The notes under the pieces: generated by a model
Told to the model about the DNA's origin: nothing
The model's database searches: none
The model's input: the letters and a program-made list of their open reading frames with translations, nothing else
Part shown: in pieces, positions 55,361 through 55,906 of the stretch
Position numbering within the stretch: the first letter of the stretch is position 1
How the letters are laid out: every line of letters begins with the position of its first letter
Program-made: the position numbers and the translations under genes
From: Candidatus Palauibacter sp.
GTDB taxonomy: Bacteria; Gemmatimonadota; Gemmatimonadetes; Palauibacterales; Palauibacteraceae
Assembly: GCF_965197445.1 (NCBI RefSeq)
Contig: NZ_CBDANE010000003.1
Coordinates: 43,604-107,603, forward strand
Reading direction: 5' to 3'
DNA length: 64,000 nucleotides

Positions 55361-55902
55361 TCAGCCTCTCTTGTCTTCGAGTTGTACGCCGAGCCCGTCG
55401 GCGATCCGATTCACGAACGCGTAGTAGGCCGTGACCGCGCAGATGTCGTGGATGGCACGATCGTCGAAACCATGCGTTCTCAGAGCCTCGACATCCGTTT
55501 CGGCGATCTCGCCGGGGGTGCGCGTCAGCCGCACAACATAGTCCAGCATCGCCCGGTCGGTCTCGTCCAGCTCCGCGGTGGCATGGTCCTCGGCCAGCGC
55601 GGCGACGAGCCGCTCGTTCTCCTCATCGGAGCGACCGGTGACTGCGAGCAGGCGACGGAGACCCTCCCCGTGATGGACGATTCAGTAGTGGCAGTCGTTG
55701 AGGCCCGATACCGTGACCGCGATCATCTCGCGCTGAGTGCGGGACAGCGGTCCTGCCCCGTACATGAGTTCACGGTAGAGATCGTAGTGGAGGGGGATGG
55801 TGCGACTATGGACTCCGTGAACGCGGATGATGTTGTCGTCATCCGCGACACGGTCCTGTTCGGGGATCTCCGACGGATCCGGAACGTCGATGAAGGCCAC
55901 GG

Positions 55903-55906
<4 letters not shown>
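55361..55906 (-). CDS. AhpD/carboxymuconolactone decarboxylase-family peroxidase-related protein with in-frame TGA at the CxxC motif (selenoprotein candidate or pseudogene)
   Basis: Track ORFs 55682..55906 and 55361..55549 are in the same frame, separated by a single TGA (55682-55684). Joined, they read ...[16 protein letters not shown][TGA]IVHHGEGL...[14 protein letters not shown]...[32 protein letters not shown]. This matches the family pattern N.C..C...H. TTG 55906 overlaps the trpB stop. Confidence 0.6.

Follow-up and report, generated by a model that had tools for sequence, protein, structure and literature searches.

We analysed a 64,000-nucleotide stretch of DNA from Candidatus Palauibacter sp. 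(this whole stretch is called the window below) and found that it carries, on its minus strand, what is very probably a functional selenoprotein gene of the already known AhpD-like family (TIGR01926/COG2128, active-site motif CxxU), in which the in-frame UGA at 55682-55684 would be read as selenocysteine (Sec) in translation. An earlier examination of the letters without database searches (hereafter the sequence-only reading) had pointed to this TGA as a candidate Sec codon. The evidence comes mainly from comparison with relatives, which share the TGA, keep the reading frame behind it under selection and conserve, at synonymous sites, a hairpin resembling a bacterial selenocysteine insertion sequence (SECIS) element.

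Gene structure and family assignment

The open frame runs on the minus strand from 55906 to 55361 and comprises 181 sense positions and a terminal TGA, with exactly one internal stop, whose context reads C-H-Y-TGA-I-V-H-H (the motif C-H-Y-TGA lies at 55693-55682). The proposal that a single TGA at 55682-55684 splits an otherwise continuous 181-codon AhpD/CMD frame is thus borne out by the sequence and also by family profiles: with U written as C in the protein for this comparison, it matches Pfam CMD (PF02627, E 3.5e-12) and the NCBIfam model TIGR01926, 'peroxidase-related enzyme' (119.2 bits against a cut-off of 81.8, with residues 24-178 on model positions 30-177/178). Only the number of codons that follow the internal TGA has to be corrected, from 107 to 106. 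The TTG at 55906 was considered as the start and rejected; because relatives show CTG at that position and a conserved GTG or ATG of M-A-F-I two codons on, the likely start is the GTG at 55900-55898 (M-A-F-I-D), which would give a 179-codon gene with Sec at residue 73. When all six frames were scanned for in-frame TGA codons with coding-like flanks required, the AhpD-like gene was the only plausible case in the 64 kb, and the other three matches reflect the composition of antisense frames.

Relatives were collected as two sets, the 80 best from bacterial genomes (one genome per species) and 80 metagenome loci; the first set together with the window gene is referred to as the 81 genes. The parts of the gene are as follows.

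55361-55900, minus strand: AhpD-like (TIGR01926) gene, very probably a selenoprotein gene; likely GTG start at 55900-55898, 179 codons, terminal TGA at 55363-55361
55727-55729, minus strand: GAG codon of the predicted relay Glu, 12 residues before the first Cys, the spacing of Glu36-Cys48 in PA0269 and Glu118-Cys130 in Mycobacterium tuberculosis AhpD (PMC3141380)
55691-55693, minus strand: TGC codon of the first Cys of C-H-Y-U, invariant as Cys in 81 of 81 genes and matching Cys48 in PA0269 and Cys130 in the M. tuberculosis enzyme (PMC3141380)
55682-55684, minus strand: in-frame TGA, very probably read as Sec, at residue 73 counted from GTG or 75 from TTG, replacing the second Cys of CxxC
55670-55672, minus strand: CAC codon of the predicted relay His at U+4, with His invariant and CAC in 81 of 81 genes; motif E-x11-C-x-Y-U-x3-H
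55655-55671, minus strand (read from 55671 to 55655): SECIS-like hairpin ACGGGG-AGGGU-CUCCGU within the H-G-E-G-L-R codons

Conservation of the in-frame TGA and of the sequence behind it

TGA occurs at exactly this codon in all 80 genome relatives, in the pattern C-x-Y-TGA-x-x-H-H-G, and these relatives span about eleven phylum-level lineages (Gemmatimonadota, Acidobacteriota/Thermoanaerobaculia, Calditrichota, Desulfobacterales, Polyangiaceae, Planctomycetota, Chloroflexota, Zixibacteria, Ignavibacteria, Marinimicrobia, and an alphaproteobacterium). The best matches are metagenome-assembled genomes of Candidatus Palauibacter with 76-80% identity (80% to L001). Among the metagenome relatives the codon is TGA in 79 of 80, the remaining one being unreadable at that spot.

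Both the earlier impression that the part behind the TGA still reads as family sequence and the proposed check of its conservation came out in favour of the gene. The downstream frame is intact and open in every relative; one of the 81 genes has 65 codons there, and the other 80 have 102-127. It is also under purifying selection: the window gene was compared with thirteen relatives, and in the ten comparisons that were unsaturated at synonymous sites the ratio of nonsynonymous to synonymous divergence (dN/dS) was 0.15-0.31 after the TGA, with proportions of nonsynonymous (pN) and synonymous (pS) differences of 0.12-0.18 and 0.36-0.63, respectively, and a similar 0.05-0.27 before it.

Alignment with Cys-containing homologs, another check that had been suggested, revealed Cys/Sec pairs at this column and agrees with the claim that the TGA occupies the position of the second Cys in CxxC. 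The rare close homologs with Cys have CRYC, CDYC or CEYC there (P0004-6, P0017, P0100), and in the relatives of known structure (Protein Data Bank entries 2pfx, 3c1l, 2prr, 2oyo, and 6k40) C-x-Y-C is aligned to C-H-Y-U. These solved relatives align across the TGA as one continuous domain (residues ~15-176, E 7e-28 to 1.5e-19). At the DNA level the Cys forms carry TGT or TGC at the Sec codon (L081, L170-172). The metagenome scan had been seeded with Cys-form proteins to gather Cys controls, and since almost only TGA forms came back, the Cys control rests on these four loci (L170, L172, L081, and L171).

A SECIS-like hairpin downstream of the UGA

The hairpin ACGGGG-AGGGU-CUCCGU at 55655-55671 is as the sequence-only reading described it, starting 10 nt after the UGA (11-27 nt downstream), with the loop 17-21 nt after it. 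Its rough fit to the bacterial SECIS window, suggested there, is supported by published values and by conservation. The criteria for bacterial SECIS (bSECIS) elements are an apical loop of 3-9 nt, a stem of 4-16 bp, G in the first two loop positions, a UGA-to-loop distance of 16-37 nt, and a minimum free energy (MFE) of -7.5 kcal/mol or lower (PMC13188914). Here the loop AGGGU amounts to 3-5 nt (N1-G-G-N-N2, in which the A·U is able to pair), the stem has 6-7 bp, 16 nt separate the UGA from the loop, and folding gives an MFE of -7.5 kcal/mol.

Across the family the hairpin has the consensus 5'-ACGGRG-NGGGN-CUCCGU-3', and the synonymous sites in its stem are fixed or nearly so in the 81 genes: His is encoded by CAC in 81/81 against 69% in the remainder of these genes, the Gly codon is GGA or GGG (GGR) in 81/81 against a background of 46%, the Leu codon is CTC in 80/81 against 37%, and the Arg codon is CGT in 78/81 against 12%. 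All four bases occur at the third position of the loop Gly codon, and the next three codons vary synonymously without constraint. RNAalifold recovered the same hairpin from twelve diverse members, with a consensus of 6-7 bp. In 149 unique sequences, canonical pairing accounts for 95.6% of the cells of the six pairs, and shifting the 3' partner by 1-3 nt lowers this share to 28-58%. Pair 5 is A-U in 83 cases and G-U in 65, and in L095 one G-C is swapped to C-G with the structure kept. In two pairs of members, L120/L122 with an extra Leu codon and L164/L165 with different codons, the stem has shifted its register to 8 bp and carries, in the same location, a GGUC loop, presumably the loop sequence of fdhF.

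The element resembles the bSECIS of the Escherichia coli fdhF type, taken as the Zhang and Gladyshev consensus in the form given in PMC13188914, in being a stem-loop in the coding sequence right after the UGA, with a small apical loop containing G[G/U] and a UGA-to-loop distance that is 16 nt here. It differs in its much shorter stem (6-7 bp, -7.5 kcal/mol) and in that a bulged U is not evident. Rfam returned no SECIS and no credible family, either in a scan of the window at the gathering threshold or in a permissive scan of 55560-55760.

In the four Cys-form loci the motif after the Cys is relaxed (HHGVWLR, HHGGNLR, HRSSILR). Because the Cys forms relax it, the HHG[EA]GLR motif of the Sec clade seems to be dictated by the hairpin and not by protein function, which suggests that the RNA imposes part of it. 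The sequences also suggest that the Cys-form loci descend from Sec forms. A further locus, L085 (5001-5498, ENA ERZ25067251 contig_8), has CGA at the Sec codon yet retains five of the six hairpin pairs. With a called product of 165 aa that is short at the N terminus, it looks like a copy decaying after the loss of Sec decoding.

Points against Sec decoding and alternative explanations

Several observations weigh against a functional selenoprotein gene. The relatives are kin, and their TGA counts are thus not independent events. The conserved residues H-G-x-G-L-R dictate two of the six stem pairs. In the four Cys-form loci, 2-5 of the six pairs are retained; these partial pairs look like relics of a Sec ancestor and not like a clean negative control. 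Folding, proposed earlier as a check, gave a divided answer: the 17-mer folds at -7.5 kcal/mol (z = -2.3), exactly at the MFE limit, but the wider contexts of 35-71 nt give positive z-scores, at or above the shuffle mean, and thus do no better than shuffles. Single-sequence thermodynamics therefore neither supports nor rejects a SECIS, and the significance of the hairpin comes only from comparison with relatives. The catalytic role, in addition, is drawn from distant relatives.

The Sec machinery also has to be counted on this side. No selA, selB or selD was found in the 64 kb window by Pfam annotation of about 40 of its open reading frames (ORFs), neither the window nor 60 related loci yielded a tRNA-Sec with ARAGORN, and E. 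coli SelA, SelB, and SelD gave no tblastn match in the window or in 80 loci with flanks of ±10 kb (1.2 Mb), a search that is silent on the rest of the genomes. Sec decoding machinery is therefore assumed for this genome, as none was seen in the window or in the flanks of relatives. Indirect support comes from a sponge metagenome, in which SelA, SelB, and SelD are each present once in both Gemmatimonadetes bins (numbers 43 and 94; PMC5649159, Table S4); these bins are 4.8 Mb in size and have 67-68% GC, similar to the 68.5% of the window. In the literature on Palauibacterales (PMC10469786), selenium is not mentioned.

A nonsense pseudogene, in which a Cys codon (TGC or TGT) had become TGA in this genome and the gene had died, would present exactly this picture after one TGY-to-TGA change, and the Sec machinery not seen in the window would fit it too. 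We give it next to no chance, because TGA occurs at the same codon in 159 of the 160 relatives, across many phyla, and the frame behind it is intact and selected (dN/dS 0.15-0.31). The hairpin is conserved at synonymous sites as well, and it is implausible that 159 independent assemblies would all show the TGA as an artefact. The pattern that the sequence-only reading had described for a dead gene, with TGC or TGT in relatives and TGA plus further lesions in this genome alone, is the reverse of what was observed, as there are no further stops or frameshifts. Read-through of the UGA without Sec, either under a reassigned code (UGA as Trp or Gly) or by near-cognate suppression inserting Trp, Cys or Arg, might be suggested by the W printed at this position in some database entries (P0001-3, P0012, P0021) and by the CGA (Arg) of L085. 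However, where W is printed the DNA has TGA (L084, the locus of P0021, reads TGA and does not translate to the query), the column holds Cys and not Trp in real homologs, and the copy with CGA lacks part of its N terminus and seems degenerate. Considering that TGA is an ordinary stop here, ending 25 of the 33 window genes including trpB and the AhpD-like gene itself, the code is standard and reassignment is excluded; simple suppression, in turn, would leave a conserved stem-loop at SECIS distance unexplained. Non-Sec read-through is thus very improbable.

Another possibility is that translation stops at the UGA, yielding a 72-aa peptide, and restarts just after it to make a second protein of about 105 aa. 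A protein search does return only a handful of full-length matches and about a hundred fragments of 99-126 aa that cover only the post-TGA part, mostly start with MHHG[EA]GL, and are paired with 72-aa upstream ORFs, and many relatives have GTG, ATG or CTG one or two codons past the TGA. We ascribe the fragments to gene callers, which stop at the in-frame TGA and restart. In the window the codons after the TGA are ATC GTC CAT CAC, and ATG, GTG, and TTG are absent for 44 codons, yet these codons are conserved, so that re-initiation cannot explain them and only read-through makes this part of the protein. Moreover, the break would fall inside the CxxC motif and within one helix-pair of what is a single domain in all solved relatives (PMC3141380), and the Cys forms are made as one chain. 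Two separate genes are therefore highly unlikely, and decoding of the UGA as Sec is by far the preferred interpretation.

Proposed function of the selenoprotein

Judging from its anatomy, the hairpin would act as a bacterial SECIS that recruits the SelB·GTP·Sec-tRNA(Sec) complex to the ribosome. The predicted product is an all-helical, 179-residue thiol/selenol oxidoreductase of the AhpD fold with the active site E58-x11-C70-H-Y72-U73-x3-H77, in which Sec would replace the second Cys, the residue that the Glu/His/water proton relay serves and is reported to activate in M. tuberculosis AhpD. From what is known of the family, the selenolate may attack peroxide or, alternatively, the oxidised Cys of a peroxiredoxin-type partner, and then form a selenenylsulfide with C70 (C72 in TTG numbering), the first Cys of C-H-Y-U, which we infer by analogy to be its partner; re-reduction would be provided by a cellular dithiol system.

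The relay signature described for AhpD is Glu-x11-Cys-x-(His/Tyr)-Cys-x3-His, represented in PA0269 of Pseudomonas aeruginosa by Glu36, Cys48, Tyr50, Cys51, and His55 (PMC3141380), and the window protein shows the same pattern with E58, C70, Y72, U73, and H77 (GTG numbering; E60, C72, Y74, U75, and H79 in TTG numbering). It is from M. tuberculosis AhpD, with PA0269 as an intermediate, that the proposed mechanism is taken; although the signature matches, that enzyme is very distant, chain topology varies within the superfamily (PMC3141380), and its reductant is the lipoamide system. The solved proteins 2PFX, 3C1L, 2PRR, 2OYO, and DR1765 (6K40) share the C-x-Y-C-x3-H motif and a single-domain alignment with the window protein. 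They differ in having Cys instead of Sec, with neither UGA nor SECIS, and they read AHGAAVR after the motif, whereas the Sec forms read HHG[EA]GLR with codons that double as the hairpin.

By analogy, a redox role is supported by the gene neighbours of relatives and by DR1765. Loss of this CxxC relative in Deinococcus radiodurans leads to hydrogen peroxide sensitivity and the Cys residues of CxxC matter, according to a review citing Zhao et al. 2020 (PMC8945050). In L169 (GCA_037440225.1) the AhpD-like Sec gene follows a Redoxin gene and a peroxiredoxin-like (Prx-like) gene, and the cluster also includes an extracytoplasmic function (ECF) sigma/anti-sigma pair and a pyridine-nucleotide disulfide reductase. 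The Cys-form loci L081 and L170 have neighbours similar to those of L169 (AhpC-TSA/Redoxin and Pyr_redox_2). The peroxiredoxin-like gene of L169 (3629-4237), located two genes upstream of the AhpD-like gene, is itself split by an in-frame TGA (GHW-TGA-PYC, UxxC) and, by its sequence, is probably a second selenoprotein gene in this redox cluster.

Relation to known AhpD-like proteins

The family is not new. The 'AhpD-like protein, CxxU' was introduced as a selenoprotein family in 2005, with 27 sequences from the Sargasso Sea (PMC1088965), and in the Global Ocean Sampling (GOS) survey of 2008 it was the fourth most abundant selenoprotein family, with 299 sequences ('AhpD-like 1', COG2128), and Prx-like/AhpD-like gene pairs were noted (PMC2398784); the mention in the sequence-only reading of Sec-containing AhpD-like proteins in metagenomic surveys was right (PMC1088965, PMC2398784). 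More recently, TIGR01926 has been listed as 'AhpD-like protein, CxxU' in a 2026 review (PMC13188914), and BSepDB gives the family a separate entry (PMC13326102). The gene in the window resembles its members in its TIGR01926 score above the cut-off, in CxxU with Sec predicted at the second Cys, in the SECIS-like hairpin downstream, in the same marine and sediment distribution, and in co-occurrence with Prx-like selenoprotein genes (here in L169); it agrees with the family in every sequence-level criterion. What differs from the published accounts (PMC1088965, PMC2398784, PMC13188914) is the Palauibacter-related Gemmatimonadota host and the trp-operon location, which are unmentioned there, and otherwise nothing of substance.

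We also considered an ortholog of canonical M. tuberculosis AhpD and rejected it, because only the core-domain model TIGR00778 matches (46 bits), with no full-length AhpD model among the six matches, and there is no ahpC neighbour in the window, where the flanking genes are trpB and Glyoxalase_3. A gamma-CMD decarboxylase was rejected as well: Pfam CMD matches, but the CxxC-type motif and the relay residues, which the decarboxylase subfamily lacks (PMC3141380), are present and thus place the protein on the AhpD-like side of the superfamily.

Genomic context in the trp operon

The genes surrounding the selenoprotein gene are on the same strand.

55903-57111, minus strand: trpB (PALP family), with its TGA stop at 55905-55903, 2 nt before the start of the selenoprotein gene
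54693-55355, minus strand: Glyoxalase_3 (VOC) gene, immediately downstream
39077-39991, minus strand: trpA, 16 kb further downstream

The sequence-only reading had proposed translational coupling to trpB through a TTGA overlap. The overlap is there in the sequence, but TTG is not a conserved start and the gene begins 2 nt after the trpB stop. The location, described at that time as an unusual operon position, is not peculiar to this genome, because the synteny is conserved in Gemmatimonadota: about 30 loci from this phylum (e.g., L168, 496-6462) have the order trpC-trpF-trpB-selenoprotein gene, in many cases with Glyoxalase_3 and trpA coming next, and in L031 (6108-8712), L028, and L030 the selenoprotein gene lies directly between trpB and trpA. 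The downstream Glyoxalase_3 gene is conserved in Palauibacter-like loci and in several other Gemmatimonadota, and it is probably co-transcribed with the selenoprotein gene. Relatives in other phyla are without trp context. A real functional tie to the trp operon, such as a selenoenzyme that would protect tryptophan synthase or an indole intermediate from peroxide, or a coupling of selenium or redox status to Trp synthesis, seems improbable to us; the alternative is that the gene merely hitch-hikes in the operon.

The gap of about 0.8 kb between trpC and trpD of the window (58733-59529) contains only weak ORFs, none of which matches a family; among Palauibacter relatives the length of this gap varies from 0.8 to 5 kb.

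Other features of the window

Five consecutive ORFs at 7200-13100, with no Pfam match, have a third-position GC of 0.72-0.74, compared with 0.83-0.90 for most neighbours, and this block may have been horizontally acquired. A DUF222/HNH endonuclease gene is located near it, at 16092-17417. The window also contains three large paralogous genes of 1078-1270 aa (3843-7076, 46097-49564, and 49564-53373, two of them adjacent), which encode PD40/TolB-like beta-propeller repeats and a C-terminal amidohydrolase domain.

Implications

Considering that the family has been catalogued since 2005, the identification of this gene is correct but ordinary, and the scientific gain is small, as the surveys of 2005 and 2008 already placed AhpD-like CxxU proteins with the most abundant selenoprotein families of the sea. 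Standard pipelines would mis-call the gene as two short ORFs or as a pseudogene. Public protein collections hold the family mostly as artefacts, either as a 72-aa ORF plus an ORF of about 103 aa named 'peroxidase' (P0008-P0120, L166-L169) or as full-length entries with W at the TGA (P0001-3, P0012, P0021). The clade consists almost exclusively of the Sec form, and its nearly invariant 17-nt SECIS-like element within conserved codons could be used as a simple search pattern for annotating the family. For the organism itself, the finding means that this Palauibacter-like Gemmatimonadota genome very probably belongs to a selenocysteine user.

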